A stretch of DNA of 64,000 bases from a virus. Its lineage: Duplodnaviria; Caudoviricetes. Of this stretch, positions 1-16,787 are shown piece after piece; position 1 is the first letter of the stretch, and every line of letters begins with the position of its first letter. Position numbers and translations under genes: made by a program. Where the stretch lies: the IMG/VR virus record IMGVR_UViG_3300020577_007794; one strand, written 5' to 3'. The notes beneath the pieces are model-generated. The model had not been told where the DNA came from and made no database searches. It saw nothing but the letters and a program-made list of their open reading frames with translations.

Positions 1-2
1 GA

Positions 3-221
3 CAATTAGCTTTGTCGCGGTTTAGTTTGGAAAATAACTTCCACCTATGGCCGATAGCTTGGAATTCTATGTTTGAAAAAGCAGCTAAAGGATTGCTGGG
101 CCCTCCTGATGTTCCGTTTAAGTTTAACCCTGTTACCTTCGGCAATGTAGGTAGAAATGATACTTGCCCCTGTGGTTCTGGATTAAAATACAAGGCTTGC
201 TGCCTAGGAGCGTTCGGATAA
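3..221 (+). CDS. C-terminal part of a SEC-C motif protein (probably starts upstream of the window)
   Basis: [18 protein letters not shown] is a SEC-C Zn-binding motif; the frame is open from base 3. Confidence 0.75.
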
Positions 222-523
222 TGGAAACATCATTCTTTCTTTATAGGTTAGTTGACGCTATACCTGGGTTAGATGAAATCTTCAATAGAAAACTTTGCTT
301 TAGAGTTAGACATGCTGTATTTCACGAAGACAGTGTAGAGCTTCACGTATCTCCAGACAAGTTCTCTGACAAACTTCTATCAGCAGGTAAAACATACATT
401 GTGGAAACTGAAATAGATAGGAAGAGCACCTATCGCTATTACTATTTCAAAGCGTTTGAAATACTTGCAGAAGAGAACCAAATTATAGTAAAACTTTACG
501 GTGAATTAGTGGATCAAAAGTAA
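221..523 (+). CDS. hypothetical protein
   Basis: ORF track 164..523; ATG at 221 overlaps the upstream stop (TAATG), as for most genes here. Confidence 0.6.
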   Translation: METSFFLYRLVDAIPGLDEIFNRKLCFRVRHAVFHEDSVELHVSPDKFSDKLLSAGKTYIVETEIDRKSTYRYYYFKAFEILAEENQIIVKLYGELVDQK

Positions 524-525
524 CG

Positions 526-534
526 CTCTATTTG
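526..534 (+). promoter_or_regulatory. CTCTATTTG motif, putative phage late promoter
   Basis: Exact 9-mer 20 nt upstream of the baseplate J start; recurs at four other gene boundaries. Confidence 0.6.
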
Positions 535-554
535 CGTACAGAGAATTAGTATAA

Positions 555-1667
555 ATGCCTACTCCTAGACCTACATTACAGGAAATAAAAGAGAGAATTT
601 ATGTAAGAATTCTTAACGAGACCAGTTTAACTGCAGGGCTAGAAAGTTCTGCAATTGGTGTCTTGGTTAATATAATGGCTGCTGAAATAGATTCTCAGTG
701 GGCATACATAGATGAACTCACTACCCAGTCATCCTTGACAACCGCTACAGGTGGTTCTCTGGATGATATGGGTCTTATGTTTGGGGTCCCAAGAAAGGTT
801 GAATCGAAAGCCACCACAACAGGTGGCACACCATCTATTCGATTTACAAATCTTGGGGGTACCTCACTATCAATTCCTGTAGGAACCAGAGTCTACAAAG
901 ATAGTGACCCCTCTATAGCTTTCTTTACCATAGAGGGGGCTACCTTAGCAGGGGGTGCATCAGTTGATGTACACGCCACAGCTGCACAGCCTGGGCAAGC
1001 ATTTAACGTAGCAATCGGAGACATTAATAGACACAGTGCCCCGACTACAGCTTTGTCAGTAACAAACATCCTTCCAATTCAAAACGGTGCTGCTAGAGAA
1101 TCGGATACAAGTTACAGAGAAAGAATCCTTCAAGATCTTCTTAGAAGAAACTCACTTACAGTCCCTAATACCACAGCTCTTTTAAGAACCATTGATGGTG
1201 TTAAGGATGCAATGTTGATCAATCTGGCAAGAGGTACTGGTACATTCGATGTCATCATCACCCCGTACCATTCATCCCAAACTGAGTCTGTTGTGGAAGA
1301 GTGTAGGGCTCTGCTTTCTGATACAACAAATGCTGGTATTGATTTTGTTGTAAAAGCTCCTAAGATACGACAGCTTGATCTCACTTTAACTCTGAGATTC
1401 AATCCTTCAGCCTCAAACAAAGAACTGGATAGGCAGTTAATAAGAAGCATTATTAACGCTAGGGTTGGAAATCTTCCTGTAGAGAACGGTACAGGAAATG
1501 GTTCTTTATTCCTGTCTCAACTAAGATCCGTAGCTGCTGCAGCTAGCCCAGCAATCATTGATGCAGCTATTGTTGGTGCTCTTGACGAAATCCCTCTTAC
1601 TATTGATGGAGAGGTAAAGATCGGGTTAGGAGACCGAATTGAACTTAGAAGTTTGGTCATTAGATAA
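555..1667 (+). CDS. baseplate J-like wedge protein
   Basis: 370 aa; TATGGSLDDMG..FGVPRK, GT.V and ESDTSYRERI motifs typical of Baseplate_J. Confidence 0.85.
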   Translation: MPTPRPTLQEIKERIYVRILNETSLTAGLESSAIGVLVNIMAAEIDSQWAYIDELTTQSSLTTATGGSLDDMGLMFGVPRKVESKATTTGGTPSIRFTNLGGTSLSIPVGTRVYKDSDPSIAFFTIEGATLAGGASVDVHATAAQPGQAFNVAIGDINRHSAPTTALSVTNILPIQNGAARESDTSYRERILQDLLRRNSLTVPNTTALLRTIDGVKDAMLINLARGTGTFDVIITPYHSSQTESVVEECRALLSDTTNAGIDFVVKAPKIRQLDLTLTLRFNPSASNKELDRQLIRSIINARVGNLPVENGTGNGSLFLSQLRSVAAAASPAIIDAAIVGALDEIPLTIDGEVKIGLGDRIELRSLVIR

Positions 1668-3094
1668 TGAATTGGAGCCTGTTCTCCCCTAAAATTAGAG
1701 ATGCGTGGACTCCTGCCGTTGGTAGGTCTCCGCGTTGGTTCAGTTCAAACTCTTACCCAGACCTAGATACCCTCCCTGAAATTCCTGAGCTTAGCTCCAA
1801 CCCCGTTGGCACATTCACCGTCCCTTCCGCCTCCGGGGTTGTCCCCTTTTCTTGGTCTCTATCGGCAGATACATTCTTAAAGCCATCATCAACATTCCAA
1901 GCCCTTTTCTTCTTAATGAATGAGGAAAGGGCTTTGATGAATTTAAGTCTTAAATCTCTTTACTACACCAGAGCATTAGGATTTGACCTAGCTGAACCAG
2001 ACTTCGCTTGGTATGTTTCTAATGTTAATTCTGAACTACCCATCTACGTACAGACTAGTTCAGGTTATGTTGAGCTACAATCTGCTACGTCAACTAACAC
2101 CTTGATTTATTCCAACAAATGGAGTTATCAAAAGAGTGGGCAGGAAGTCCTATTAAACGGTTTTGGCCTCCTAGAATCTTCTACAATAGTTGTTAGTGGT
2201 TGGCATTTTGCTGCTAGTGGTTCGGTGTTTGATAGTACTACACTTATACACTTTAAAAATCCAACTACACAGACTTGGATTCCTCTTCATCCAACAGAAG
2301 TAAGATCTGATGGATTCTTAGGTTTTTCGAGTACTGAAGAGTGTGCAGTTAGATCCTATTCTAGGGATGCTGCTGCAAGACTTACTACACTGAATCTGCT
2401 AACTGATGGGAAAATCTATACAGCTGATTTGGTTCCCCTATGGACTTCCATAGACGAGAAAGCGTTGTGGTTCGGTCTAAAGAGAAAACAACACGAATCT
2501 TCAGCACAATTAGCAGAAAGAGTGCTAGGGTGCAGTTGGTTTGCCAAAGATCAATCTATAGAGAGTACAAGAAATGCAATATCTTCATCACTTGGTCTAT
2601 CGAATATTTCAGTTAGTGAGCGACATACCGGATCTACCTCTGCTAGTTCTGGCTTTAATTATGTTTCGCTAAGAAATATTGATAAAATCCAAACAGCCAG
2701 GGAAATGTTAACAGTTGATGAGAATGATATAATAAGAACAAGATATTATGAACCCAGGCGGGGTACAGTATTTTGTGGTGATTATTCTTATGAAGCTGTG
2801 GCATCCTCCGGTATAGTTACCGTTATTGATTACACACATAGGTACGGAGATTATCTGTACGCTGATTGGACTTTGTATGTCTATACCAGTTCATCGTCAG
2901 CAATAACTTTTACCGCCAATATGCCACTAGAGGGGCCTGACTATATTACGTTGAGCACTCGAGATGTTGAGGTGGATAATACGTCAGGAGCAGATCTTAT
3001 AGACTGCTTTGACAAAACTTGGCCAGGATTTAGGTGGCAAAGCTCACCCATGGCTGCGTTATCAGATGACGCTAGTACAGCTGTTTTTGATTAA
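1667..3094 (+). CDS. putative baseplate protein (paralogue of 9469..10824)
   Basis: Follows baseplate J; carries an IDEKALWFGLKRKQHESSAQLAERV wedge-type motif; Ser/Thr-rich. Confidence 0.55.
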   Translation: MNWSLFSPKIRDAWTPAVGRSPRWFSSNSYPDLDTLPEIPELSSNPVGTFTVPSASGVVPFSWSLSADTFLKPSSTFQALFFLMNEERALMNLSLKSLYYTRALGFDLAEPDFAWYVSNVNSELPIYVQTSSGYVELQSATSTNTLIYSNKWSYQKSGQEVLLNGFGLLESSTIVVSGWHFAASGSVFDSTTLIHFKNPTTQTWIPLHPTEVRSDGFLGFSSTEECAVRSYSRDAAARLTTLNLLTDGKIYTADLVPLWTSIDEKALWFGLKRKQHESSAQLAERVLGCSWFAKDQSIESTRNAISSSLGLSNISVSERHTGSTSASSGFNYVSLRNIDKIQTAREMLTVDENDIIRTRYYEPRRGTVFCGDYSYEAVASSGIVTVIDYTHRYGDYLYADWTLYVYTSSSSAITFTANMPLEGPDYITLSTRDVEVDNTSGADLIDCFDKTWPGFRWQSSPMAALSDDASTAVFD

Positions 3095-3096
3095 TT

Positions 3097-3606
3097 ATGA
3101 TTCACCTTTCAATGGACCCATCCCTTAAAGCATTTGGGTATGTAGTGTACGACGATAAAAAAAGAACAATTCTCGAAGCAGGATGTATAAGGACAGATAA
3201 AGCAAAGAAAGGGGAGAAAAAAGTAACTGATGATGACGCAGAAAGGCTTCATTACATCGCTACAACACTACAAGGAATCCTTTCCAGATTTAAGATTGAT
3301 CAGATGCACGCTGAGATTCCTATTGGGGCACAAAGCTTTAATGCAGCCAAAGCACTGTATGGTGTGAGAGCAATAGTGCTTTCAATTCACGTTTTCCTTA
3401 ACATACCATTAAACGTATTTAGAGCTAAGGATATCAAAGAAAATTTAACTGGTGATGCCAACGCTGAGAAGGATGCTGTGTACAACGCAGTATTAAAAGA
3501 GTTCCCTTCCATAAAAGAGCACTGCGAAAGTGTCACTAAAGATAGGAGGGAAGCTATATCAGACGCTATGGCAGTTTTTCTTTATTACAGCAATAATAAA
3601 GAGTAG
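3097..3606 (+). CDS. ruvC: RuvC-like Holliday junction resolvase
   Basis: N-terminal DPSLKAFG, central acidic E, C-terminal ISDAMAV; RNase H-fold pattern; 169 aa. Confidence 0.8.
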   Translation: MIHLSMDPSLKAFGYVVYDDKKRTILEAGCIRTDKAKKGEKKVTDDDAERLHYIATTLQGILSRFKIDQMHAEIPIGAQSFNAAKALYGVRAIVLSIHVFLNIPLNVFRAKDIKENLTGDANAEKDAVYNAVLKEFPSIKEHCESVTKDRREAISDAMAVFLYYSNNKE

Positions 3607-3622
3607 GTAAAGTTTTTTAGCC

Positions 3623-6223
3623 ATGGTTAATACAAATAAAGTTCTCTATAATGATGAAGCTATGAAGGCCCTCAAGCAGGGTGCGGATAAGCTAGCTGAA
3701 GCTGTAAAAGTGACTCTTGGCCCCGGTGGTCACAATGTTATTATTGATCAGGGCAGTGAATGGCTCCCACCAATCGTAACTAAAGACGGTGTTACTGTTG
3801 CCAGAGAGCTGCGAGTTAATGGTGGACCTGAACAGTTGGGTGCCCAGATTATCAAACAGGCAGCATCAAAAACCAATGATTCTGCGGGAGACGGCCCACA
3901 ACCTCTTTACAGTAAAGTCCTAACCCCTAGTGGCTTTGTTCCTATGGGTTCTCTAAAAGTAGGGGATGAGCTTTGCGGTACCGGCGGTACGATACAAACA
4001 GTTCTAGCTGTCTACCCAAAAGGTGAAAAAGAAATTTATAAAGTCATATTCACCGATGGGCGGGAGGTTGAATGTTGTGAGGATCATCTTTGGTTTTTGA
4101 AAAAGGCTTCCAGAGGGACTGAGGTGATTATGACCACTAAGGAAATTCTTTCTAGTGGTGTACACAAATTTAACGGAGATGGGCATTATCTCCACAAATT
4201 TTATACTCCCAGGACTTTTGCAGAATTTTCGAACAAAAAATTCGTTCTGGATCCTTATCTTGTAGGGCTACTCATAGGCGATGGGGCTCTAACTGGTACT
4301 GGTTCTATTGAATTGTCTTTAGGGCCGAATGATAGAGATGTAATTGATAGAATTACACTACCTGAAGGGCTGTCTCTTAGCTGGAGATTTGTTGAAAAGA
4401 AACACTACTACAGAGTTAAAATAAGGGGAAAAACTCCAAATGGTGAAACTATCCATGATCTCGTACAAAAAATTGGGCTATTGGGGTGCAATAGTGGAAC
4501 TAAATTTATCCCATATGATTATCTTTTTTCAGATCTAAAATCGAGAGAAGCACTACTCAGGGGGTTGTCCGACACAGATGGGCACATTAATAACAGAGGG
4601 TTGCTAGAGTATTCAACTATAAGCCCACAGTTGGGGGAAGACATGCTTACTCTCTTGAGAAGTCTAGGTAAAGCTGCATCATGCGTTCTTCTAAAAAGAA
4701 AACCTAACTCATCATACTCCAATACTTCCATATACAGAATCAATGAATTAAAGGGAGATACTTTTGGTAATGGTATTCATGATGTCATACCTACGGGTGA
4801 ATTTACCCGAATGCAGTGCATAAAGGTAAGTAATGAGGATAATCTGTATTTTACAGATAATTTCATTGTTACACATAACACAACTACTTCTACAGTTCTA
4901 GCACAAGAAATTCTTAACCAAGGCATCAAGCATCTTGGTACAGGAAAGAATGGTATCAATATTAAGAGAGGTATTGATCTTGCAACCCAGATGGTTGTGG
5001 AATACCTTTCCAAAAACTCCACGTCTATCTCTCTGAAGGATATGGCTATGGTAACCCATATTGCTACGGTCTCTGGTAATGACCCAGAAGTTGGAAAGAT
5101 GGTTGCCACAGCCTACAAAGAAGTGGGTGAAAACGGTCTAGTTGGTTTTGAAGAAACCAGAGCTAGTGAGACTGTTATTGAAATCCACAAGGGCATGTCT
5201 TTCGATAGAGGATACCCAACCCCTGCTTTTGTAACAGATCCCAAGAGAATGGTATGCGAGTTGCGAGAAGCTAACGTTCTTGTTTTTGAAAGACGAATTT
5301 CTTCAGCGCAAGAACTAGTTGGATTCCTTACCGAATACCACAAAAACTTCAAAGAAACTCCCCTTCTTATCATCACTTCAGATATTGATGGAGATGCACT
5401 CGCTACTCTTGCAGCTAACAAGCTATCCAATGGTATGCTTTGGATTGGTATTAAAGCTCCAGGTTTCGGGAAGAGAGCTTCTGACTGGATGGAGGATATT
5501 GCGGCTTTGACCGGTGCTAAGGTCATTGCTGAAGTAAGCGCAGCTAAGCTTGAAAATGTTCCAATGGATGTTTTGGGTAAAGCAAAATCCATCACTATCA
5601 ACAAAGAGGAAACTTCTATTGTTGGTGGATACGGTGATCCAGCGTCAGTCGCTGAATACGTTGCCAACCTTAAAGAGAGACTTGTTAGTGAAACCAGTGC
5701 CCAGGAAATTGAATGGCTAAAGCTGAGGCTTGCTAAACTTGATGGAAGCATTGCTCTTATTAAGATTGGTGCGCAGACTGATGCTGAAATGAAGGAAAAG
5801 AAATACAGATTTGAAGATGCTATTAACGCAACTAAAGCTGCTCTTTCCCATGGTATAGTTCCGGGTGGTGGTGTCGCACTTCTTAATGCTTTTGAGGATG
5901 TACTTGCTAGAAAGCCAGAATTGTCACTAGAAGAGTCGGTAGGTTTTGATATCCTTCTTATGAGTCTTCTTATACCTCTTAAGACTATTGCACAGAATTC
6001 AGGTATCAGTGGGGAGCATGTTATTGCTGTGCTACAGACAAGCAAGAGACATAAGAATTATGGCTACAATGCTAGAACAGGATATTACTGTGACCTTGTT
6101 AAAGAAGGTATTATTGACCCAGTAAAGGTGACTACATCTGCGGTTCTTAATGCAGCTTCGGCAGCTGGAACCTTGCTTACAACAAGAGCAGTTATTTACG
6201 GTGACCCTGTTGAACCTAAGTAA
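3623..6223 (+). CDS. groEL: chaperonin GroEL containing an intein (538 aa after predicted splicing)
   Basis: AVKVTLGP, VTKDGVTVA, AGDG/TTT, GMSFDRGY, KAPGFG, EDAINAT, GIVPGGG, GIIDPVKV. Confidence 0.95.
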   Translation: MVNTNKVLYNDEAMKALKQGADKLAEAVKVTLGPGGHNVIIDQGSEWLPPIVTKDGVTVARELRVNGGPEQLGAQIIKQAASKTNDSAGDGPQPLYSKVLTPSGFVPMGSLKVGDELCGTGGTIQTVLAVYPKGEKEIYKVIFTDGREVECCEDHLWFLKKASRGTEVIMTTKEILSSGVHKFNGDGHYLHKFYTPRTFAEFSNKKFVLDPYLVGLLIGDGALTGTGSIELSLGPNDRDVIDRITLPEGLSLSWRFVEKKHYYRVKIRGKTPNGETIHDLVQKIGLLGCNSGTKFIPYDYLFSDLKSREALLRGLSDTDGHINNRGLLEYSTISPQLGEDMLTLLRSLGKAASCVLLKRKPNSSYSNTSIYRINELKGDTFGNGIHDVIPTGEFTRMQCIKVSNEDNLYFTDNFIVTHNTTTSTVLAQEILNQGIKHLGTGKNGINIKRGIDLATQMVVEYLSKNSTSISLKDMAMVTHIATVSGNDPEVGKMVATAYKEVGENGLVGFEETRASETVIEIHKGMSFDRGYPTPAFVTDPKRMVCELREANVLVFERRISSAQELVGFLTEYHKNFKETPLLIITSDIDGDALATLAANKLSNGMLWIGIKAPGFGKRASDWMEDIAALTGAKVIAEVSAAKLENVPMDVLGKAKSITINKEETSIVGGYGDPASVAEYVANLKERLVSETSAQEIEWLKLRLAKLDGSIALIKIGAQTDAEMKEKKYRFEDAINATKAALSHGIVPGGGVALLNAFEDVLARKPELSLEESVGFDILLMSLLIPLKTIAQNSGISGEHVIAVLQTSKRHKNYGYNARTGYYCDLVKEGIIDPVKVTTSAVLNAASAAGTLLTTRAVIYGDPVEPK
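3896..4879 (+). mobile_element. intein (328 aa) with LAGLIDADG homing endonuclease and class-3 signature
   Basis: Splits GDG|TTT; starts PQPLYSKVLTP; block B CEDHLW; LAGLIDADG motifs YLVGLLIGDG and LLRGLSDTDG; block F MQCIKV; ends IVTHN followed by Thr+1. Confidence 0.93.
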
Positions 6224-6257
6224 GATTCTGTATTAATATTGACCATAAAAAAGAAAT

Positions 6258-6296
6258 AAAAGAGGTACTAGTTTTAGGCTAGTGCTTCTTTTTTTT
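6258..6296 (+). terminator. Rho-independent terminator after groEL
   Basis: Stem AGAGGTACTAGT/GCTAGTGCTTCT (with G-U pairs) followed by a T tract. Confidence 0.75.
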
Positions 6297-6300
6297 GTCC

Positions 6301-6309
6301 CTCTATTTG
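6301..6309 (+). promoter_or_regulatory. CTCTATTTG motif, putative late promoter of the structural operon
   Basis: Exact 9-mer directly after the terminator and ahead of the 22-kb structural block. Confidence 0.6.
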
Positions 6310-6387
6310 AGTAAATGGTATGCCTAGTCTGGTCCAGTCTAGGGCCACTACTTAGTTTACGAAAACTAAATAATCTCAGGTAATTTT

Positions 6388-6804
6388 ATGGCAAGCAATT
6401 TCAAGATCTCAACCTCGGATAGAAACGCAGCCTGTGACGCTATTGTTGACTTAGTTGACGGCGGAGCGGGTGCAGGAACACTAGAAGTGAGAACAGGCTC
6501 ACCTCCTGCAACCCCAGCTACTGCGGATTCTGGTACACTTCTAGCTACGTTAACCATGAGCGATCCGGCATTCGGTTCTGCATCCACAGGTGTTGCAACA
6601 GCTAGTACTATCACTTCTGACACTAATGCTGACGCTTCTGGAGATGCAGGGCATTTCAGAGTTAAGGACAGCAGCGGCAACGTAATCTTCCAGGGCACAG
6701 CTGGTAACTCTGGGGATACTCCTGATCTCACTTTCGATAATAAATCAATAGTAGCAGGTGGTACGGTAGCCATTTCCTCCCTAACAGTAACAGTACCGGC
6801 CTAA
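6388..6804 (+). CDS. small virion structural protein (possible fibre subunit)
   Basis: 138 aa Gly/Ala/Thr-rich beta protein (RNAACDAI...GTLEVRTGSPPA...GHFRVKDSSG), a pattern common in phage structural modules. Confidence 0.55.
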   Translation: MASNFKISTSDRNAACDAIVDLVDGGAGAGTLEVRTGSPPATPATADSGTLLATLTMSDPAFGSASTGVATASTITSDTNADASGDAGHFRVKDSSGNVIFQGTAGNSGDTPDLTFDNKSIVAGGTVAISSLTVTVPA

Positions 6805-6808
6805 TATT

Positions 6809-6955
6809 ATGTTTGAATTAGATGTAGAAATCAAAGGCTCTGGGACTTGCACAATATCTAAAGAGCTGATCTTAAAAAGATTGGCTCTTATTGATGCTGA
6901 TTGTGAAGAAGCAGAGTACTTAAACAATCTCTTGAAGAGATTTGAAACGGAGTAA
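6809..6955 (+). CDS. small hypothetical protein (48 aa, absent from ORF track)
   Basis: MFELDVEIKGSG...RFETE fills the gap between two same-strand genes. Confidence 0.5.
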   Translation: MFELDVEIKGSGTCTISKELILKRLALIDADCEEAEYLNNLLKRFETE

Positions 6956-6957
6956 GA

Positions 6958-7800
6958 ATGGCGATCACTGTAGATAAAATACTTCATGCCCTTGCAGCCA
7001 ATAGTTCTAGATTGGTTATTGATAAGGCGTCAATAGCGTCACAAACAGCGGGGTCATACTGCTCTATGTGGAGAGGTACCGGTCAACCTGCGCAGGGGGC
7101 GATACCTACTACTGCAGCTACTTGTAATGAAACTACAGTAGGTGGATTTTCAATTACTCAGCAAACTTCTCCTGTGAAAAGTTACATAGGTTACGCAGAG
7201 TGGTCCTGCAGCAACTCTTCCATGACCTTAGAGTTTCATGATAGACTAGCTCATATGGGTGGTTTATCAGGTATTGTCACCACCGCCCAAACAGTTAACG
7301 TTGACTTAGATGCTCTTTTAGCTACAGATAATATTTCTGGTAGGATAGGAGACAGTGATTATTCTGACGTTCAGTGGTGGCTTGAGTGGTACACAGCAAC
7401 TGGATCTACAGCAGTTACAGCTACTGTTAACGTAACATATTCTGATGGCAGCACTGGCAACTTATCAGCAGTATCTCTTGCAGCTTCAAGGCCCGCATCT
7501 CATATGATAAATTTAAACGTATACAGACCTGCTGCTGTCACTGCTTTTATAAGAGATGTCAACTCAGTCACACTATCTGCAACCACAGGTACCGCAGGAA
7601 ACTTTGGCGTTACGGCTACTAGATTGAGAAGCAGTATTTTTGCCCCGCTTGCTAACGCAAAATATAGTGGTAACTGGGCGGAGTTACCTATTGGTGAAAT
7701 TCCGCAAAAAGCTTGTCTGTCGCTTCTTATATTAACATCTACTACATCCACCGGTACAGTTAGGGGTGGAGGTAAAATTATGCATCTCGATCCTAGCTAG
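6958..7800 (+). CDS. putative virion structural protein
   Basis: 280 aa, Thr/Ala/Gly-rich beta-type composition, within the structural operon. Confidence 0.5.
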   Translation: MAITVDKILHALAANSSRLVIDKASIASQTAGSYCSMWRGTGQPAQGAIPTTAATCNETTVGGFSITQQTSPVKSYIGYAEWSCSNSSMTLEFHDRLAHMGGLSGIVTTAQTVNVDLDALLATDNISGRIGDSDYSDVQWWLEWYTATGSTAVTATVNVTYSDGSTGNLSAVSLAASRPASHMINLNVYRPAAVTAFIRDVNSVTLSATTGTAGNFGVTATRLRSSIFAPLANAKYSGNWAELPIGEIPQKACLSLLILTSTTSTGTVRGGGKIMHLDPS

Positions 7801-7816
7801 GTATGTGAATATATAG

Positions 7817-9472
7817 TTGAACTACTTAAATCTACCAACTAAAATTCAAATACCCGTAGGTGGTGTTTGGGATGAACCACTCTCCAGCGATATACTTGCT
7901 GGGGAGTATTTTAGTAGTTTAGCTCCTCCAGTATTTTCAGCCACTGCAGCGGCTACTACTAATGCTGCTACTGGAACCGGCTCAGCAACATTCACAGCCC
8001 CACCAGCAGGTACATTCACTGCCACAGCAGATATAACCAGCACAGCAACAACCGGTGCAGGTTCAGCTACTCGGACTGTTCCTTCATTTACTGCTACAGC
8101 AGCTATAACAAAAACCAATACAACTGTTTCCGCAAGTGGCACAAGAACCACCCCCACTTTTACAGGAAGCATTGCTCTCTCAAAAAGCAATACCACTAGC
8201 ACAGGTTCGGCAACGCACACTGCCCCGGTATTCACTGCTAGTGCCAATATAACTAAATCCAACACAGCCCTTGAGGGGGTTGTAAAGGTCTTCAGTATTG
8301 GTGCAATTCAGTGTACTAAATCCGCCACTACTGGTAGTGGCTCAGCTACACACACTGCCCCCATTTATACTGGTACTTCTGCACCCAGTACAAACAAAGC
8401 TTCTGCATCTCTATCTGGTACCACTGCACCACCAGTTTTCACAACATCGGCTGCTATAACAGCATCTAAAGCTTCAGTAAATATTGCTGCTTCATTTACT
8501 GCACCGCAATTTACTGCCTCTGCTTCAATCACAAAGACTGCCACTACAGTATCAGCTGCGGGCTCTTTCACTGTGCCTGTCTTTACAGGAACCTCCAACC
8601 CTTCCACAAATAAAGCTACAGTAACAGGTACGGCACTAAACACCCCACCAGTTTTTACTGCATCATCAACCCTGACAAAGAGTGCAACAACCAGTGCAGG
8701 GTCTGCAGCGCATACTGCACCTACTTTCTCAGGTAGTGCATCTATAACTGCAAACAAGGCTTCCTCTGAAGGCTCAGGTGTTGGAATCCTTCCAACAAGA
8801 ACAGCTAATGGTGCGGTAACAGCCTCTAACATTGTTGGTGGAGGTTTAGGTGATGGTATTGATCCTGTTTACTCTGGTGCGGCAGCTTCCACCACTTCTA
8901 AGGCTACTGTTGCTGGGGTCGCAGAAAACTCTGGCCCGTTCTTCACCGCAACTGCAGCTATTGTCTGCAACGAATCAGTTGTTGCTGGAAACGGAACACA
9001 TATTACCCCTGTCTATACAGGAAACGCAGAGCTTTCAAAAACTCCGACCATGGCTGCTTCGGCAACACATGTTGCGCCAGTATTTTCTGCATCATCAGAC
9101 TGTTTATCACAAAAAGCAAGTGCATCTCTAGAAGGATCTACTCTACCCCCTATTTGTATAGGTACAGCATCTCTTAGCACTAGTAAAGCAACAGTATTAA
9201 TAGAAGGTACTGTAACTGATCCAGTGTTTGCTGCTGCTGCCGCATGTGTGGTGAGTGACGCAGTTGTAGAAGGAACTGGGCAGGTATCTGCACCTGTTTT
9301 CTCTGCCTCCTCTGCAGTCACAACAACAAAGACAACAATTAGGGCTTCCTCTTCTCCTGAGAAAATTACCCTAGCAGAGTTGAAACCATACGCGTTCTTC
9401 TCTAGGGGACGTAAGAGAAGACGAAGCCATGCACCTCTTGTTGTCCCATTCAAAACCGGTAGATATAGATGA
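7817..9472 (+). CDS. Thr/Ala/Ser-rich repeat protein (about 20 x 24-aa repeats), putative fibre scaffold
   Basis: Repeat such as VFTASSTLTKSATTSAGSAAHTAP; basic C-terminus; TTG start. Confidence 0.6.
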   Translation: MNYLNLPTKIQIPVGGVWDEPLSSDILAGEYFSSLAPPVFSATAAATTNAATGTGSATFTAPPAGTFTATADITSTATTGAGSATRTVPSFTATAAITKTNTTVSASGTRTTPTFTGSIALSKSNTTSTGSATHTAPVFTASANITKSNTALEGVVKVFSIGAIQCTKSATTGSGSATHTAPIYTGTSAPSTNKASASLSGTTAPPVFTTSAAITASKASVNIAASFTAPQFTASASITKTATTVSAAGSFTVPVFTGTSNPSTNKATVTGTALNTPPVFTASSTLTKSATTSAGSAAHTAPTFSGSASITANKASSEGSGVGILPTRTANGAVTASNIVGGGLGDGIDPVYSGAAASTTSKATVAGVAENSGPFFTATAAIVCNESVVAGNGTHITPVYTGNAELSKTPTMAASATHVAPVFSASSDCLSQKASASLEGSTLPPICIGTASLSTSKATVLIEGTVTDPVFAAAAACVVSDAVVEGTGQVSAPVFSASSAVTTTKTTIRASSSPEKITLAELKPYAFFSRGRKRRRSHAPLVVPFKTGRYR

Positions 9473-10824
9473 GTACTCCAGCAAAATGGATTCCTAGATG
9501 GATGGCCAGTGCCACGGTCCCAGTGTATTCAACAATAGAAGTAAGCGGTAGCCTTGTTACTTCTGGAAGTTTGGATAGATGGTACACAGGGATGATATCC
9601 CAACATGAGCACGAATTACATGAATGGGCTGGAAAGTTTGCACTCACTACTTTCTACTCCAGCACAGCCCTTCCAAGAAAAGGGGTTTCTATAACCCGTC
9701 CTCTTGGATTCAATAATATCCAGGTAGAAATAACACAGGATAATGCAGACCATGTTGTTGACGGGCTTCTTTTTGCTGGGGATGAATACAGTTATCTTTA
9801 CCAGACAGTTGATCCCGTAGTTTTAGTTAGAGATCATAATATTTCTCTTAGAAACTGTGCGTTGGTTGAATTTGTAGTCTATGTTTCTACAGGATTAACT
9901 TACGATCTATCCTCTATATCTAAGTTTTCTGACAAAGTTCCTGATGCCCCTATTTATGCAGCAGACTACTTTGGTGATATTTTCTGCTATGAATCGGATC
10001 AAGTAATAGCTGCATCTGGTGTCATATCATTTCCCACGATTGGTGCTTACTCAATTAGATTTGAGCATCAACCCCTATTTCAAAAAATTCTATCAGGCGG
10101 GTTGATAACAATAAATGGTAGAACACCAAAACCTGAGTTAGAATTTTATAATAACGTAGTGGATAGATATGCCTTTCTTCTAGGACTAAAAAGAAAAGAA
10201 GATGAAGATGATCTCTCCTTAAGATCCAGATGCCAAAATTATTCTCTTAGTAGGACACAGGCCCAATCTATAAGTGCTGGATTAGGTTTTTCTAAACCCT
10301 TTATATGGGATACAGGATTTGATCTTACTATACCTGCCAGTGGTTCTGCCCCACCAAATATACCAGCCCTAGGGAAGTATGTCAAAGCTGTGGAATCTGC
10401 TGCTGTTGATTCTGGGAGAATTACACTAAACAATTTTCCACTAGGAGCTGTCACCCTTAGGTTAGACGGACAAATTGTGGAGCCGGAAACCTATTCTGTC
10501 AGTGGTAATATTATCACAGTAAACTCAGGGTTAATTAAAACCTTAATTGATAATGGCTCTATTAGTGAAAGAGTTACAATTGAATACAGAACACAACAAT
10601 TGACCACCATTACCTCAACCAGCAGTGGTGGTGCTGTGTTCTTCGATGTTCCTAAAGTCACTGGACAGAAGCTAGTAATGGGAACTATTCCCACAAATGT
10701 AGAAATCGAAGAGCTTGTTCAGACCGACATTGAATTTAGATGGGGTCGTGGTATCAGATCTAATGCAGGTTTAGGGACTTTTGGCGGATACTATTCCGAA
10801 GATAATTCACTTTTCTACAAATAA
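9469..10824 (+). CDS. putative baseplate protein (paralogue of 1667..3094)
   Basis: PRW near the N-terminus, VDRYAFLLGLKRKEDEDDLSLRSRC, C-terminal FRW shared with 1667..3094. Confidence 0.55.
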   Translation: MSTPAKWIPRWMASATVPVYSTIEVSGSLVTSGSLDRWYTGMISQHEHELHEWAGKFALTTFYSSTALPRKGVSITRPLGFNNIQVEITQDNADHVVDGLLFAGDEYSYLYQTVDPVVLVRDHNISLRNCALVEFVVYVSTGLTYDLSSISKFSDKVPDAPIYAADYFGDIFCYESDQVIAASGVISFPTIGAYSIRFEHQPLFQKILSGGLITINGRTPKPELEFYNNVVDRYAFLLGLKRKEDEDDLSLRSRCQNYSLSRTQAQSISAGLGFSKPFIWDTGFDLTIPASGSAPPNIPALGKYVKAVESAAVDSGRITLNNFPLGAVTLRLDGQIVEPETYSVSGNIITVNSGLIKTLIDNGSISERVTIEYRTQQLTTITSTSSGGAVFFDVPKVTGQKLVMGTIPTNVEIEELVQTDIEFRWGRGIRSNAGLGTFGGYYSEDNSLFYK

Positions 10825-12507
10825 ATGGCAACGACAACTTACACAAACTGGCTAGAGCTAACAGGCTACCCTTCTGCGGGGATTGGTGATCTAGAAGATC
10901 TCAAGCTCGTTATCGGTGTAGGTGACAATGGTGGGTGGATTGGTTATGTTAAACCAGGTTGGTACTACTCATCAGGCTTAGAGCACTATAATTACATACA
11001 AAAAAGTACAGTTCAGGCAACCATCGCAGCTGCATCAGGAAGCATATCCGCATCCTCCTTCAGACCTGCATGGGGGCCTGTTCTAGTTTATGACGAAAAC
11101 GGTACCAACTATGTTGAGCATCATAACTGTTTTCTACCAGCAATGCCCCTAACTTGGGCTCAAGCAGCTCCACAAGTTTATTCTGCCTCTCTCCCAACTA
11201 GCGGTATTCTTCTAGGGATGAGGGGCAACGGTCAACTAACATTTAGTAGGGCAGCTTCTTCAGGAGATTTATCCGCAGGTAGGCTTTATTACCACGATAA
11301 AGATCTTAATAAAGTCTATACTTACTCAACCTCCGCTAGTGCTATAACTGCATATGCTGATATAGCAATGCTTCATCCCGTCCTAAAGTTCCGAGAAATC
11401 GTAACACAAGAGGCTGGTGGTGTTGTTAAGGCTTCTTATAGGAATATAAGAAATGTAGTTGTGACTAAGGGAACCCAATCTCAAACTATTGGAACTGTTG
11501 ACGACAACGTTATAACACACAGTTTAACAGTTTCCGAAGGTGATTGGGTTGTCCTGGAATACTACATAGATAAAAGTTTTGTCTTATACGATCATGATAG
11601 AATCCATGCTTATACAAAAGCTGGGTCTGGTGCGACACTTACAGTACATAGTGAGGGAACTCCACCTGAGTATCTCAAAAAAGCTTATCAATCTTCTCCA
11701 AACGATGGTCAACAATTACAGTTCAATCCACTCTTTTCTGATGCATTCAGGGCTGGATTCCTTTACCACTCAGAAACAGCTTCATCTGGAAGTCCACATA
11801 GAGTTTCGTTAGTCTTTGATAAACGAGAAGTGGTTGGTGGTTGGAAGGAGATCGTAAAGACAACTATTGTTGTTACCGACCAAACTGGACTTCCACTTCC
11901 ACAAACTAGCCTAGTCTTCACACATAATCAAGCACCCTCTGGTCTCCTTTTATCGGTACCAGCAACTCTTGCCAGTACTGGAAGTGTTTATACTTTAAGG
12001 ACAGACAATAGGGGTGAGGTAAACCTGCTTATCTACCCAACCACTTCTGTCTCTGGAAATCTACAACTCCGGGTAGATTGTGGAACCTTAACAAGCAGCG
12101 GTAGTGTTAGAATTCTCAATACAACTCAAGCACTGTCTTTTGATAAATACTCTGCTGGTGTTATAAATGTAGCGCAGTCAAATGCATTTACACCAAAAGG
12201 ATACTCACGATTGTATGCATCCCCCCACTACTTAGACGGAATTCCAAGAAATGCAGCAAGTGGCATTACGTTTATTAGTAGAAAACCATCCTCTTTCCAG
12301 TACACAAACACGTCAAACGAAGAGGCCACTTCTATTAGATCAGCCACAGCAAGGTGTGTTGACAGTACTGGACCATCTTCTCTCAATCCTAGCAGAGTAG
12401 TTGGTCTGGATGAGTATCTTGGAATTATTGTTGCAGACACTGATGAACTAGCTGCTAAGGCAGACTCCGGTCAATCTCCTATCGTTATAGTTAGGGAGGA
12501 ACCATAA
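10825..12507 (+). CDS. virion structural protein with an Ig-like (Big_1-type) segment
   Basis: VTDQTGLPLPQTSLVF...TDNRGEV Ig-like motif; operon context. Confidence 0.5.
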   Translation: MATTTYTNWLELTGYPSAGIGDLEDLKLVIGVGDNGGWIGYVKPGWYYSSGLEHYNYIQKSTVQATIAAASGSISASSFRPAWGPVLVYDENGTNYVEHHNCFLPAMPLTWAQAAPQVYSASLPTSGILLGMRGNGQLTFSRAASSGDLSAGRLYYHDKDLNKVYTYSTSASAITAYADIAMLHPVLKFREIVTQEAGGVVKASYRNIRNVVVTKGTQSQTIGTVDDNVITHSLTVSEGDWVVLEYYIDKSFVLYDHDRIHAYTKAGSGATLTVHSEGTPPEYLKKAYQSSPNDGQQLQFNPLFSDAFRAGFLYHSETASSGSPHRVSLVFDKREVVGGWKEIVKTTIVVTDQTGLPLPQTSLVFTHNQAPSGLLLSVPATLASTGSVYTLRTDNRGEVNLLIYPTTSVSGNLQLRVDCGTLTSSGSVRILNTTQALSFDKYSAGVINVAQSNAFTPKGYSRLYASPHYLDGIPRNAASGITFISRKPSSFQYTNTSNEEATSIRSATARCVDSTGPSSLNPSRVVGLDEYLGIIVADTDELAAKADSGQSPIVIVREEP

Positions 12508-14063
12508 TGCAGAATCAGTTAAATTTACGGTTCGGACCAGCACCACAAAATAAAGGCCAAGCAGTGGGAATAGCATTTGTTGCATCATCAATGATGCAGC
12601 CTGATCTTAGTGTGTCAGCCTTTGATACATATAAGTTCGCCAAAGAGAATGCTCCGCAATTAAGAGACTACATCTTCCACCCAAACTCCTTCAGCACAGA
12701 GTTCAAACTTAGACATGTGTATGGTGGAACCTCTCTTTTTAGTCAAGTTCCCCCAGCTAGTGGTGGATGGTCTATTTACGATTCATCAAAAACAGTAGAC
12801 CTAACTGATAATAATTACTCCCTGCCTTTTGTTAACTCACCAATCAAATCCCTTGGTATAAGACAAACAAGATCGTCTTCCTGGGGGCTAGAAGTAACTT
12901 CTGGTGTTATATTTAGATCGTACACAATACCTTCTTACGAGCAATCAGATGCGTGGTTTCTGTCTGGTGCTTTATCCGGTATTTTAGAAGTTGGTTCTAC
13001 CTGTGTTCTTGTATATACTGTTCCAGAATGTTTTTATGGAACATTGGAAGATAGTGTTGAAGGTGTTTACCCTGGCTCAGGATTTAAACTTAGAGCTGTT
13101 GTAGAAACAGCACACGCTGCTGGACCAAACAGAATCACATTCTCCGATAGTCTGCATTCTTTGAAGAGGATTACAGTTAACGGTATTGATAAATACACAG
13201 GCAATTTTACAGAAGATTCCTCAGCAACTGGTGTTATCAAAGAGGTTAACAGAGCATCAAAGTATATTGATGTTCGCTTCAGCCTCGCGCCAGGGGATGA
13301 AATAGAACTAGAATATACTATCTTCGCACAAAAATTCACATATCTAGGTTACCGAGATAGGAACAATGTCTACTACCCGTTCGATGCTAACCCTGAATAT
13401 GGACATGTTATAGGTGACTCAAGATACGGTGCTATAAGATCTTCAGCAGATTGCCTCCTAGAACAAGTAACTGTATACGCAATACCTTCCGCTGTAGGTG
13501 TTTACAGCATTGTTAAAGGCTCCCCTGATGAAATAGTTTTAACCTTCTACAGTGCTTACGATTATGGGGAGACTCATTTTATACGACACTGTGTAGGGGA
13601 GAACATCGAGGATATCGTCCCCAGAGTTTCAGAAGGACCATCTAATACATATGGATTCTCTGTCTTTGGAAGAAACTACTATGATGAAGCAGGGGTACCC
13701 AAGAGAGATATTTTCTCTACAAGATACCCGTCAATGCTTCCTTTATCCAGGGTTCTTCTAAAAGCACCTGCCTCAGTCAACTCGATAAAGGTTGCAGATG
13801 CTAGAATTAGGGGCGGAGGTATTCCAGAAGACTTCGATTTTGATCTCCTAGTATCTGAACCAAATGCACTAAATACTCTTAGAGGCTACTTCGATCTAGG
13901 CAACTGGGACGGTAAAGCGGCTCAAGTTGGTGGTGCAATAACAATACGAGTCAATAAATCTGTTCTTGTTGCAGAAGGCGGTAAGTACACAGTTGAGGAT
14001 GTCAAAGAAATAGTTGAAAATAGAATACCACCAGGTGTGTACTATAAACTGGAGTTTGTATAA
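12507..14063 (+). CDS. virion structural protein (baseplate region)
   Basis: 518 aa; DARIRGGG motif and C-terminal EIVENRIPPGVYYKLEFV resembling baseplate wedge C-termini. Confidence 0.5.
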   Translation: MQNQLNLRFGPAPQNKGQAVGIAFVASSMMQPDLSVSAFDTYKFAKENAPQLRDYIFHPNSFSTEFKLRHVYGGTSLFSQVPPASGGWSIYDSSKTVDLTDNNYSLPFVNSPIKSLGIRQTRSSSWGLEVTSGVIFRSYTIPSYEQSDAWFLSGALSGILEVGSTCVLVYTVPECFYGTLEDSVEGVYPGSGFKLRAVVETAHAAGPNRITFSDSLHSLKRITVNGIDKYTGNFTEDSSATGVIKEVNRASKYIDVRFSLAPGDEIELEYTIFAQKFTYLGYRDRNNVYYPFDANPEYGHVIGDSRYGAIRSSADCLLEQVTVYAIPSAVGVYSIVKGSPDEIVLTFYSAYDYGETHFIRHCVGENIEDIVPRVSEGPSNTYGFSVFGRNYYDEAGVPKRDIFSTRYPSMLPLSRVLLKAPASVNSIKVADARIRGGGIPEDFDFDLLVSEPNALNTLRGYFDLGNWDGKAAQVGGAITIRVNKSVLVAEGGKYTVEDVKEIVENRIPPGVYYKLEFV

Positions 14064-14758
14064 TGGCGTTTAATGATACGATAAGATGGCCAGAAAAACT
14101 GGACGTTGACTTCCCTAATCTAAGGAACAACGATAGTGCGGCTGTTTCTGATAATGAAAAGCTGTATGCGGCACACTATAATAAGGTACGAAATCTAGTT
14201 ATCAAAGCCTATGATTTGATGCAGAATACAATATCCGCATCTGGTGACGGCTCTATACAAAAGATCAGTATTCCGGTTGTATTCGATATCCCGCTTCATA
14301 CTTTAGTTAAAGTAGGCGCATTCGATGCTGCAACAAATCCACAAATCTCTGTTCCAGGGAATGTTCTACCTTTTGAATTTGTTTTGACATCATCGTCTGA
14401 TGATTATTCAAAGTTGATTGGAAGGGGTGGTGTGGCCTTACTAAATAAGAAAATTCCAACTGCTTTGTTAACACAGTTTGGTGGCATATCTATTATCAAC
14501 CCTAAACTTCATGGAACAGGATTCCTAACCGGACCTTCAGACAAAGTATTTGACAGAACAAAACCATTTCCCAACTCCTACGCAGTATCAGTAAATGCAA
14601 ACATAGGGGCAGACACAATACTTATAAGGGGAGTAATCATAGACAGTAAATTAGATTCTGTTCAATCCGCAAATGGTTTAGGCCCCCAATTCTGGCTTCT
14701 CCCTACAAACCAACAAACAAATTTAAGAATAGCCTTATGTGCGCTATCTCCACAATAA
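14063..14758 (+). CDS. putative tail fibre or adaptor protein
   Basis: WPEKLD...AAHYNKVRN fibre-attachment-type motif. Confidence 0.45.
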   Translation: MAFNDTIRWPEKLDVDFPNLRNNDSAAVSDNEKLYAAHYNKVRNLVIKAYDLMQNTISASGDGSIQKISIPVVFDIPLHTLVKVGAFDAATNPQISVPGNVLPFEFVLTSSSDDYSKLIGRGGVALLNKKIPTALLTQFGGISIINPKLHGTGFLTGPSDKVFDRTKPFPNSYAVSVNANIGADTILIRGVIIDSKLDSVQSANGLGPQFWLLPTNQQTNLRIALCALSPQ

Positions 14759-14762
14759 ATAA

Positions 14763-16787
14763 ATGAGCGATCTTCAACTGACACCTCAATATGCATCTAA
14801 GACATCTGGTTCTAATACTTGGAGCCTTAGTGGTGATATCACAACAACTGGTAACGCCACTATTGCTGATAGTGATGGATCGGTTGGGGAGAAAGTACTA
14901 TTTTTATTCGGACTTCCAGCATCCCTCCCACTAGATGCCGAAGTTAATAGTATAGCTGTTTCCTTAGTAGGAAAATGTTCATCTGGAAGTTTTACCACAG
15001 AAGAGCTTAAAGCTAATCTCGGTCTATATGTAGGAGATACTGACCAACCTTTCTCCATGGGGACGGAGAGAACTCTCTCCCTTACAGGGCATAGCTCTGG
15101 TACCCTAACATTTTCTGCATCAGAATGGGGTAAAGCATTTTGGACAAGAAAGGAACTTCTGTACGGAAATCCAAACCCAATCTTTGGTGTATCTCTAAGA
15201 AGGGTTGGAACTAAGGGTATCGAGATCACCCATCCACAGATAGTAGTTAACTATACGCAGAGCACAACACTAGTTGGTTCTAGAGTTGCTCCCCCATTTA
15301 GTCAAGTACCTCTTAACATACCAGAAAAGTTTGATGGGTCAGGTGAAGAAAATACAGTTAAAAGCGATGAAGTTAATCTCCTTGGAGATGCTCTCTATAA
15401 CATTGAGAAAGCTTCTATTGATACATCTGACTATAACAATGACATCAAATCAGTAGGAAGTTCTGCTGGCATGGATATGATCACAACAACAGTGTTTGTA
15501 TCCGGCACCTTAGGTAGCGTCTACGATTCAGTTTACTACGAAGAAATCAATGATGGGACAGCTACTTCCACTAACAGTCTTGGTGTTAGATCTGCAGCCA
15601 CAGTTATTCCATCCCTCCCACCAGGAAAACAGGTGATCTTTGAGGCTGTGGGCGGTGTAGGCTACATAGTAACCGCAAGTGGTACAGTTTTCCCCTCCCT
15701 CTTTACACCGGGCTGTCTAGCCATTAGGAGAGAGAAGAACGGTAAACACAAACACAGATTCTCGTTTAGGTTAGATTCCTCAACACTAGAAAGAGCTTCG
15801 GAGCCATTATCAAAGGGGCAATACCAAGGTTCTTTTGTTACCCTTTCTAATCCCGTTATATCGGTGTCAAATCAGCTTCAGTACACTGTACCTATTAACT
15901 CACCGGATGGTTCTCCTAACATTGTTGGTATGACCCCAACATATACTTCGTTCAGTGGTTGGTCTAATATTGATCCTCAGCCATTTTACGTTCAAGCATA
16001 CAATGATTCAAACACCCAGCAGACAGTAAGACATCTTGTATTTGCCAGCAAATCAGGGGCTAGTTTGACTAAGGGATACAAATGGGTTGATAATAACACA
16101 AACTACGACACAGTAGAATTTGACATCAACTCATTAGCTACCTATGACTACAATACATCAGGCTCGTACCTAGGTTCGGAAAATTCAAGAAGGCTGTTCA
16201 GGGGTGGTTTCCTGCTAAAGTCTTCTGGAAGTTTTGGAGCGTTAAGTGGTTATGGATTAATGATAACTACCGGTGCCCCGCAAACTACTTCATCTTACTC
16301 TGGTCCAGCAGCAGTAGCCTGGCTGGTTAAGCTGTCTAATTTAGACTTAAGCAACAGATATGATTGGGGTGTATCACTCGCTTCCAACACCTATTACCAA
16401 ACATTTCCATGGCCAGGAAGCAACTCAATGATTACTAATATAGGGTCAACCTATACACCTCTTAGTATAGCTGCTTCTGGTGCGTTCAGATTTACAGCAG
16501 CAGCGAGCGGTTCAGTTACTGTAGTGAAACTGGAATCAATAAACAATATTACGGGTGCGGCTACTGTTCTTTTAAACTACGTAGACAACACTCCATTGAC
16601 TGGAGACAAATCCGGCTTCTTCCAGACAGCACATACCTCTGCAGGTACTACAGAAGAGAAATTGGTTAACGCTACCGCTGGGTTTGACAGAGTAGCCTTT
16701 GGTTTCGCTAACAGCAGCCAAGCGCAGGGAATAATGTTCCAAGCTAGAATTCAAGGAATAGGGAGACTTATAGATGTCGTTATATAG
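14763..16787 (+). CDS. putative tail fibre or receptor-binding protein
   Basis: 674 aa, Ser/Gly/Thr-rich; SDEVNLLGDALYNIEK motif. Confidence 0.45.
   Translation: MSDLQLTPQYASKTSGSNTWSLSGDITTTGNATIADSDGSVGEKVLFLFGLPASLPLDAEVNSIAVSLVGKCSSGSFTTEELKANLGLYVGDTDQPFSMGTERTLSLTGHSSGTLTFSASEWGKAFWTRKELLYGNPNPIFGVSLRRVGTKGIEITHPQIVVNYTQSTTLVGSRVAPPFSQVPLNIPEKFDGSGEENTVKSDEVNLLGDALYNIEKASIDTSDYNNDIKSVGSSAGMDMITTTVFVSGTLGSVYDSVYYEEINDGTATSTNSLGVRSAATVIPSLPPGKQVIFEAVGGVGYIVTASGTVFPSLFTPGCLAIRREKNGKHKHRFSFRLDSSTLERASEPLSKGQYQGSFVTLSNPVISVSNQLQYTVPINSPDGSPNIVGMTPTYTSFSGWSNIDPQPFYVQAYNDSNTQQTVRHLVFASKSGASLTKGYKWVDNNTNYDTVEFDINSLATYDYNTSGSYLGSENSRRLFRGGFLLKSSGSFGALSGYGLMITTGAPQTTSSYSGPAAVAWLVKLSNLDLSNRYDWGVSLASNTYYQTFPWPGSNSMITNIGSTYTPLSIAASGAFRFTAAASGSVTVVKLESINNITGAATVLLNYVDNTPLTGDKSGFFQTAHTSAGTTEEKLVNATAGFDRVAFGFANSSQAQGIMFQARIQGIGRLIDVVI

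Follow-up and report, generated by a model that had tools for sequence, protein, structure and literature searches.

A putative class 3 intein with a homing endonuclease in the phosphate-binding loop of a jumbo phage GroEL

The 64,000-nucleotide stretch of viral DNA studied here (the window, part of the 194-kb IMG/VR virus record IMGVR_UViG_3300020577_007794, from a virus called a jumbo phage) carries a groEL gene which is interrupted in frame by an insert of 328 residues, located between the GDG and the TTT of the phosphate-binding motif of the chaperonin. Based on its sequence, its predicted fold and its relatives, this insert is very probably an intact and mobile class 3 intein with a LAGLIDADG homing endonuclease, placed between the Gly and the Thr of GDG|TTT. 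An earlier note on this DNA, made from the sequence alone, had described an insert splitting the motif, and the coordinates and residues that it gave for the insert proved exact (Table 1).

The interrupted GroEL and its insert

Upon removal of the insert, the two exteins form a protein of 538 amino acids with a contiguous GDGTTT, which matches the full-length GroEL model PRK12849 of NCBIfam with 545 bits (E 1e-163, cut-off 352), the stricter equivalog TIGR02348 with 544 bits, below its cut-off of 582, and also Pfam Cpn60_TCP1 and PHROG 5725, 'chaperonin groEL'. The presence of an insert in this GroEL is far beyond chance. That its removal leaves a normal chaperonin, as the earlier note had claimed, is borne out by P0138, an insert-free protein of 538 amino acids which belongs to the 90% cluster of the query GroEL itself and is identical to the predicted spliced product at 505 of the 538 positions (94%), with zero gaps and with the junction AGDGTTTS. 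Residues 6-531 of P0138 align with solved GroELs through AGDGTTT (E 1e-137 to 1e-113), and no related locus for this protein was found in IMG/VR. A second case is that of the insert-free P0135 and P0137 (521 amino acids), which match the extein of P0090, an intein bearer, at all but 3 of 521 positions (99.4% identity). Since natural insert-free alleles fix them, the boundaries of the intein are exact. The insertion point presumably lies between Gly88 and Thr89 in the numbering of the E. coli GroEL, beside the catalytic Asp87. A domain of 328 residues at GDG|TTT should block the binding of nucleotide, and for this reason the chaperonin function of GroEL may be expected to depend on splicing of the intein, a sound expectation rather than a result.

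The insert itself is recognized by two Pfam models, Hom_end (27.4 bits, cut-off 21.1) and LAGLIDADG_3 (26.2 bits, cut-off 22.5). Among solved structures, phmmer matches an engineered variant of the gp41-1 intein carrying the Trp, Cys and Thr of class 3 (WCT; 6riz, E 5e-10), the native gp41-1 intein (6qaz, E 2e-8) and PI-SceI (E 6e-6), as well as the class 3 DnaB inteins 6rix, 6riy and 6bs8; residues 4-68 of the insert align to gp41-1, to its WCT variant and to MchDnaB1, and residues 120-265 to PI-SceI. An AlphaFold2 model of the intein built on 40 homologues reached a mean predicted local distance difference test (pLDDT) of 94.6 and a predicted template modelling score (pTM) of 0.91, and a Foldseek search with this model returned PI-SceI at the top (E 5e-17), together with VMA inteins, PI-PfuI, gp41-1, class 3 DnaB inteins and I-DmoI. 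The insert is a HINT domain into which a LAGLIDADG endonuclease is inserted, and the earlier note was likewise right in calling it an intein with a homing endonuclease. The same layout is found in PI-SceI, the yeast VMA1 intein (1vde) and the best fold match (template modelling score 0.69 on the query length), which nevertheless differs from the phage intein in being of class 1 (Cys1), eukaryotic, hosted in a V-ATPase subunit and equipped with an extra DNA-recognition region, at 17% identity.

Class 3 signature and predicted splicing

Class 3 inteins are defined by a non-nucleophilic residue 1, by the non-contiguous Trp B:12, Cys F:4 and Thr G:5, and by a Ser or Thr at position +1 (PMC2807308, PMC5050341, PMC5222942, PMC7664689). 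All counts of invariance given here refer to an alignment of the best 120 of 813 homologues of the intein, in which Pro1, His64, Trp66, Cys308, Thr326, His327 and Asn328 are invariant (120/120) and the +1 residue is always Thr (120/120). Residue 1 of the insert is thus Pro and not Cys, Ser or Thr; Trp B:12 sits two residues beyond the His of block B (His64-Leu-Trp66, in DHLW); Cys F:4 is Cys308 (MQCIKV), and Thr G:5, followed by His and Asn, is Thr326-His327-Asn328 (VTHN). The signature that the earlier note had read from these motifs therefore stands at the right block positions. The two LAGLIDADG motifs hold catalytic acidic residues, Asp129, kept in 117 of the 120 homologues, and Asp228, kept in 119, and three further cysteines in the N-terminal HINT region, Cys27, Cys60 and Cys61, are invariant or nearly so across the intein family.

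Homology to inteins in which the class 3 route is proven was found by BLASTP for the Bethlehem intein (MP-Be) and by phmmer and Foldseek for MchDnaB1 and Msm DnaBi1. The Bethlehem intein (MP-Be DnaB; gp11 of AY500153, L091:7680-8702) is the prototype of the class (Tori et al. 2010, PMC2807308), which starts with Pro1 and splices efficiently via the Cys of block F (PMC2807308). The alignment of this prototype to the GroEL intein spans both from one end to the other (E 5e-25) and pairs the Pro1, His, Trp, Cys and THN of one with those of the other. Both inteins are of phage origin and share Pro1, the His and Trp of block B (His65/Trp67 in Bethlehem, His64/Trp66 in GroEL), Cys F:4 (Cys320 and Cys308, respectively), the terminal Thr-His-Asn, Thr+1 and an internal LAGLIDADG endonuclease, and their sizes are 341 and 328 amino acids. 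Nevertheless, they are only 27% identical, the prototype follows ...SQDQ in a terminase/helicase-type protein and not in a chaperonin, and its splicing is experimentally proven, whereas that of the GroEL intein is predicted. Pro1, considered as a possible novelty, was rejected as such, since the prototype also has it.

Among solved structures the best sequence match is to the gp41-1 split intein (6qaz) and its WCT variant (6riz), whose engineered Trp65, Cys107 and Thr123 are the exact counterparts of Trp66, Cys308 and Thr326 in the alignment to the GroEL intein, with His63 opposite His64. These positions are those which Beyer et al. engineered into gp41-1 as a class 3 mimic (PMC7664689), and the graft was insufficient for productive splicing (PMC7664689). 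In contrast to the GroEL intein, gp41-1 is a mini-intein that is naturally split, belongs to class 1, has Cys1 and lacks an endonuclease. The class 3 mini-inteins of mycobacterial DnaB (Msm DnaBi1, 6bs8; MchDnaB1, 6rix/6riy) share with the GroEL intein the WCT active site and the insertion in an ATP-binding loop, and the N-terminal HINT half superposes on them with a root mean square deviation of 2.1 A over 85 columns in Foldseek; they differ in being bacterial, devoid of an endonuclease, hosted in DnaB and in starting with Ala1. Class 1 and class 3 inteins were not separated in a maximum-likelihood tree because the outgroup branches are long. From its residues and its likeness to the prototype, the insert would belong to the class 3 inteins, and we strongly infer that it splices by their mechanism.

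According to the proposed mechanism, groEL would be translated as a precursor of ~95 kDa, in which, by analogy with the prototype, Cys308 of block F, activated by His64 and Trp66, would attack the Gly(-1)-Pro1 bond and form a thioester-branched intermediate. The N-extein would then move to Thr+1, cyclisation of Asn328 would free the intein of 328 residues, and an O-to-N shift would restore GDGTTT in a normal GroEL of 538 amino acids.

Table 1. Features of the interrupted groEL gene (positions in the window) and of related Cys1 inteins (positions in their own loci)
Feature	Position	Strand	Basis or remark
GroEL-intein open reading frame	3623-6223	+	866-residue precursor
GroEL N-extein, residues 1-91, ends ...SAGDG (5' half of the GDGTTT phosphate-binding motif)	3623..3895	+	NCBIfam GroEL models; colinear with P0138 and solved GroELs
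Complete intein, residues 92-419, 328 amino acids, Pro1-Asn328, without stop	3896..4879	+	Insert-free alleles; GDG|PQP...THN|T in 120/120 homologues; AlphaFold2; Foldseek
N-terminal splicing (HINT) region, blocks A and B; 3' border approximate	3896..4210	+	phmmer, Foldseek, residue invariance
Pro1 codon	3896-3898	+	
His64 (B:10) codon	4085-4087	+	DHLW motif, 4085-4093
Trp66 (B:12) codon	4091-4093	+	DHLW motif, 4085-4093
LAGLIDADG homing endonuclease domain, borders approximate	4223..4750	+	Pfam, PI-SceI alignment, Asp conservation
LAGLIDADG motif 1, residues 120-131, with Asp129	4253-4288	+	
LAGLIDADG motif 2, residues 217-230, with Asp228	4544-4585	+	
C-terminal splicing region, blocks F and G; 5' border approximate	4763..4879	+	Invariant residues; alignment to the Bethlehem prototype and gp41-1_WCT
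Cys308 (F:4, MQCIKV) codon	4817-4819	+	
Thr326-His327-Asn328 (G:5-G:7)	4871-4879	+	
GroEL C-extein, residues 420-866 and stop codon, starts TTTSTV at Thr+1	4880..6223	+	Pfam Cpn60_TCP1 (residues 420-858), NCBIfam
Thr+1 codon, first Thr of TTT	4880-4882	+	
Cys1 GroEL inteins of related loci	L036:4250-5206; L070:4250-5206; L042:4256-5230; L060:4265-5215		Seen also in the proteins P0321, P0330, P0335, P0340

Distribution, mobility and origin of the GroEL intein

The search of databases for inserts at GDG|TTT, which the earlier note had proposed, showed that the intein is far from unique. Against 5.8 billion proteins the intein region gave 813 matches, and the best 120 of these are all GroELs, mostly of about 800-935 amino acids, whose junctions likewise read GDG|PQP...THN|T and whose inteins have an identity of 50-83%. 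In IMG/VR the GroEL intein is found on 237 viral contigs of up to 390 kb, and the identical 866-residue form recurs on a second contig of 144 kb. A profile search of 1.84 billion representatives clustered at 50% identity recovered 7,297 proteins of the wider family (E <= 1e-30), and about 95 of the best 150 hold GroEL-site inteins. Such genes are labelled 'chaperonin GroEL' or left nameless by annotation pipelines, with the intein unflagged. None of 50,697 GenBank phage records covers GroEL plus intein, the best GroEL matches spanning the exteins only, and megablast of window positions 1-20000 found no match among GenBank phages. Among 185,579 genomes of prokaryotic species, four contigs from metagenome-assembled genomes (MAGs) match; three are short (5-8 kb) and have the intein in GroEL, and in the fourth, the 94-kb Clostridium MAG contig L086, it lies in a P-loop protein. 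With the exception of P0002 (871 amino acids), the other 118 relatives listed for the C-extein have no insert at GDG|TTT and are nearly all of 530-565 amino acids; two longer ones, P0142 and P0144, gave no match in the intein search. A cellular GroEL origin of the intein-bearing genes was considered and rejected on the basis of the mere four MAG contigs and of these 118 insert-free relatives. In essence, the GroEL intein is found only in uncultured phages, many of them jumbo phages.

Regarding the chaperonin that carries it, once its own cluster and P0002 (59%) are set aside, the nearest relatives of the C-extein share about 44-46% identity with it and are GroELs, mostly unnamed metagenomic proteins. 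Those named after an organism are bacterial GroELs, mostly from MAGs of Armatimonadota or Fimbriimonadales. Other phage GroELs are no closer to the C-extein than these relatives are. Such distances hint that phages captured groEL on separate occasions or that it diverged very fast.

The histories of intein and host are discordant. Across 117 intein-bearing GroELs (6,786 pairs), the mean pairwise identity is 54% for the intein and 30% for the extein, the intein is the more similar of the two in 99.2% of the pairs, and both identities are nearly uncorrelated (Spearman 0.14). The proteins P0004 and P0007, both of 867 amino acids, differ at 98 positions, of which 94 fall in the intein (71% identity) and four in the extein of 541 amino acids, and the intein of P0004 clusters with that of P0009, although the extein of P0009 is only 85% identical. 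This mosaic points to the replacement of one intein allele by another. Presence and absence at one exact site, together with the discordance between intein and host, are the marks of mobility by a homing endonuclease. Signs of decay are found as well: the endonuclease has lost a catalytic Asp in L036 and L070 (D228G), and in L060 (D129N), the intein of L078 is shortened to 263 amino acids (398-1186), frameshifts divide it in L068 and L075 (N part in frame 1, C part in frame 2) and in L079 (frames 1 and 0), and a stop lies within it in L009. The broken copies of L068, L075, L079, L009 and L078 are either decaying genes or sequencing errors. A homing element that repeatedly invades, becomes fixed, decays and invades anew would be expected to leave such a pattern.

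The target DNA, compared across 51 distinct loci, reads GGN GAY GGN|ACN ACN ACN, with third positions free. During co-infection, the endonuclease of the freed intein would cut an insert-free groEL at GGN GAY GGN|ACN ACN ACN, and repair of the break would copy the intein into it; its predicted cleavage target is the uninterrupted GGAGACGGC|ACAACTACT-type site.

Relatives of the whole intein are also found outside chaperonins. Among the records of cultured phages, 701 contain relatives that match over the full length at 30-35% identity; their hosts are large terminases, DNA helicases and ATPases of the PhoH type. In the loci inspected, most of them are inserted after the Walker A lysine, start with AQPL... 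and end with ...THN|T. Examples are the helicases of Eggerthella phage LE2-3 and Vibrio phage 501E54-1, and the DnaB of Xanthomonas phage LucasX, which is annotated as intein-containing. Their N-terminus, AQPLYSKVLT, is nearly identical to the PQPLYSKVLT of the GroEL intein, and both groups have in common the C-I-x-V of block F, the THN|T end, the type of endonuclease and an insertion site in a glycine-rich phosphate loop just before a Thr. They differ in that the Walker A inteins start with Ala1 after a Lys (GK|T), whereas the GroEL intein starts with Pro1 after the Gly of GDG|TTT in a host which is not a P-loop nucleoside triphosphatase (NTPase). The target peptides and DNAs are also alike, for example SAGSGK|TTT in a Vibrio phage helicase and SAGDG|TTT in the GroEL of the window, and in a maximum-likelihood tree a single branch among the P-loop inteins sets the 37 GroEL inteins apart (Shimodaira-Hasegawa-like approximate likelihood ratio test, SH-aLRT, 83). 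Because the nearest relatives are P-loop inteins, the GroEL inteins share one side of that branch and the targets are alike, the most likely origin would be a single ectopic homing, in which an intein of a phage helicase or terminase, seated at the Walker A site (GK|T), was copied into the phosphate loop of GroEL. Extein switching of this sort, from one nucleotide-binding site to another, has been described for class 3 inteins of actinobacteriophages in a 2025 preprint (10.1101/2025.01.02.630785).

Alternative readings, significance and other features of the phage

Several points weigh against the insert being an intact, mobile class 3 intein. Splicing, the branched intermediate at Cys308 and cleavage by the endonuclease are inferred from the sequence and from the prototype, and the WCT signature alone is no proof of mechanism, since its graft onto gp41-1 gave no working class 3 intein (PMC7664689). 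The contrast between the identities of intein and extein is inflated somewhat, as the homologues were gathered by intein similarity, and the tree backs a one-time origin of the GroEL clade only moderately (the SH-aLRT of 83 stems from a quick search, with no bootstrap). In addition, some related copies are frameshifted or hold a stop, so that not all are functional, although the copy in the window is intact.

An addition to this reading, rather than a replacement for it, is that splicing is conditional on redox state, temperature or time after infection and acts as a post-translational switch or timer of the phage chaperonin, with unspliced subunits that might poison the rings; we regard this as unlikely. 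A precedent exists in the same class, DnaBi1 of Mycobacterium smegmatis being reversibly blocked by a Cys48-Cys118 disulfide between the catalytic and a second Cys (PMC6195587), and in its favor are also the retention of Cys27, Cys60 and Cys61 in the family and the location of the insert, which interrupts the ATP site of a multi-subunit machine. Nevertheless, the patchy presence among near-identical GroELs, the replacement of alleles, the decaying endonuclease motifs and the broken copies are those of a selfish homing element and not of a retained regulator, the cytoplasmic setting of a phage gives no special reason for redox control, and a Cys at B:6 is also found in the gp41-1 intein, whose host is unrelated. 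Control by redox or temperature and poisoning of the rings are offered as speculation. The stronger form of this proposal, in which the intein is more than a parasite and conditional splicing (through the extra conserved cysteines, temperature or time) makes the subunits ATP-competent only at a set stage of infection while unspliced subunits hold the rings inactive, is quite improbable.

A minority of the inteins at the same GDG|TTT site start with Cys1 (GDG|CQP...) and keep Trp B:12, Cys F:4 and the Thr-His-Asn end (Table 1). These sister copies favor a splicing route other than that of class 3, in which either Thr+1 attacks the Gly-Pro bond directly, in the manner of class 2, or residue 1 starts the reaction in the Cys1 relatives, as in class 1, and Cys308 plays only a coordinating role like that of Asp F:4 in class 1. 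The nearest solved HINT domain, that of the class 1 gp41-1 intein, and the failure of the WCT graft to confer class 3 splicing by itself (PMC7664689) speak in the same direction. Against it, the Pro1 of the window copy cannot form a linear (thio)ester, class 2 is known only in archaeal KlbA and the WCT inteins that were tested are unable to use its route (PMC5222942, PMC2807308), and Trp66 and Cys308 are kept by all 120 homologues, as would be expected of residues essential to catalysis; we thus consider a route of this kind very unlikely. In a quick tree the Cys1 forms are scattered among the Pro1 forms and require four changes, with weak support, and each exchange of Pro for Cys takes two base changes. 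A second and more modest reading of these coexisting variants, all with Trp, Cys and Thr kept, is that they could be natural intermediates between the mechanisms of class 1 and class 3, and so a natural series for the boundary between the two classes.

It is scarcely credible that this groEL is a pseudogene, its insert being a remnant that is dead or unable to splice, or else an artefact of assembly: although the inteins of L068, L075, L079 and L009 are broken by a frameshift or a stop, the window copy is a single open frame with all catalytic and endonuclease residues intact, its architecture recurs on 237 independent viral contigs, the mean column identity of 55% reveals clear constraint on its sequence, and its identical form occurs on a second, 144-kb contig.

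Most catalogued inteins reside in ATPases of replication, recombination, repair and packaging. If the GroEL insert is the class 3 intein proposed here, GroEL would extend the list of hosts to a protein-folding machine, and the preference of inteins for nucleotide-binding loops would reach beyond the P-loop NTPases. No paper naming GroEL or any chaperonin as an intein host was found in a literature search which had InBase, InterPro, UniProt and most subscription journals outside its reach; the main text of a survey of inteins from 2015 (PMC4760082) makes no mention of GroEL, and the papers in which an intein and GroEL or a chaperonin are both mentioned do so in unrelated contexts. The statement of the earlier note that chaperonins are not a recognised host thus holds for the papers found, while the sequence databases contain hundreds of unannotated copies at the same site. 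The class 3 mechanism, the architecture, Pro1 and the preference for ATP-binding loops are already known, and the mechanism proposed here is an ordinary one. The family is large and diverse, with hundreds of viral contigs and about a hundred clusters at 50% identity, and its insert-free alleles, swapped alleles, decaying endonucleases and Pro1 and Cys1 forms at one site make a convenient natural data set for the dynamics of homing in phage populations, for extein switching between phosphate loops and for the mechanistic boundary between class 1 and class 3. Compact and efficient class 3 inteins which need Thr+1 are also of interest as parts for protein engineering.

In the window, groEL lies within a region of virion structure, preceded by a baseplate wedge gene (555-1667), an open reading frame of 475 amino acids of no assigned function and a RuvC-like resolvase (3097-3606), and followed by a gene for a virion structural protein (6388-6804). 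At 30425-31042 (+), 24 kb from groEL, an open reading frame of 205 amino acids shows two tandem matches to Cpn10 (GroES), of which that at residues 127-197 is above the Pfam cut-off and the upstream one is weaker and was found by the genome search only; it may encode a double-domain co-chaperonin for the phage GroEL. Beyond the window, the same genome encodes a large terminase (G000:C1:182916-183638, -) in which a Glu1 class 3 intein is directly followed by a Cys1 class 1 intein at the Walker A lysine, and a P-loop ATPase of 529 amino acids (G000:C1:16868-17560, +) with a class 1 LAGLIDADG intein at GAGK|C. Together with the GroEL intein, the phage therefore carries at least four inteins.

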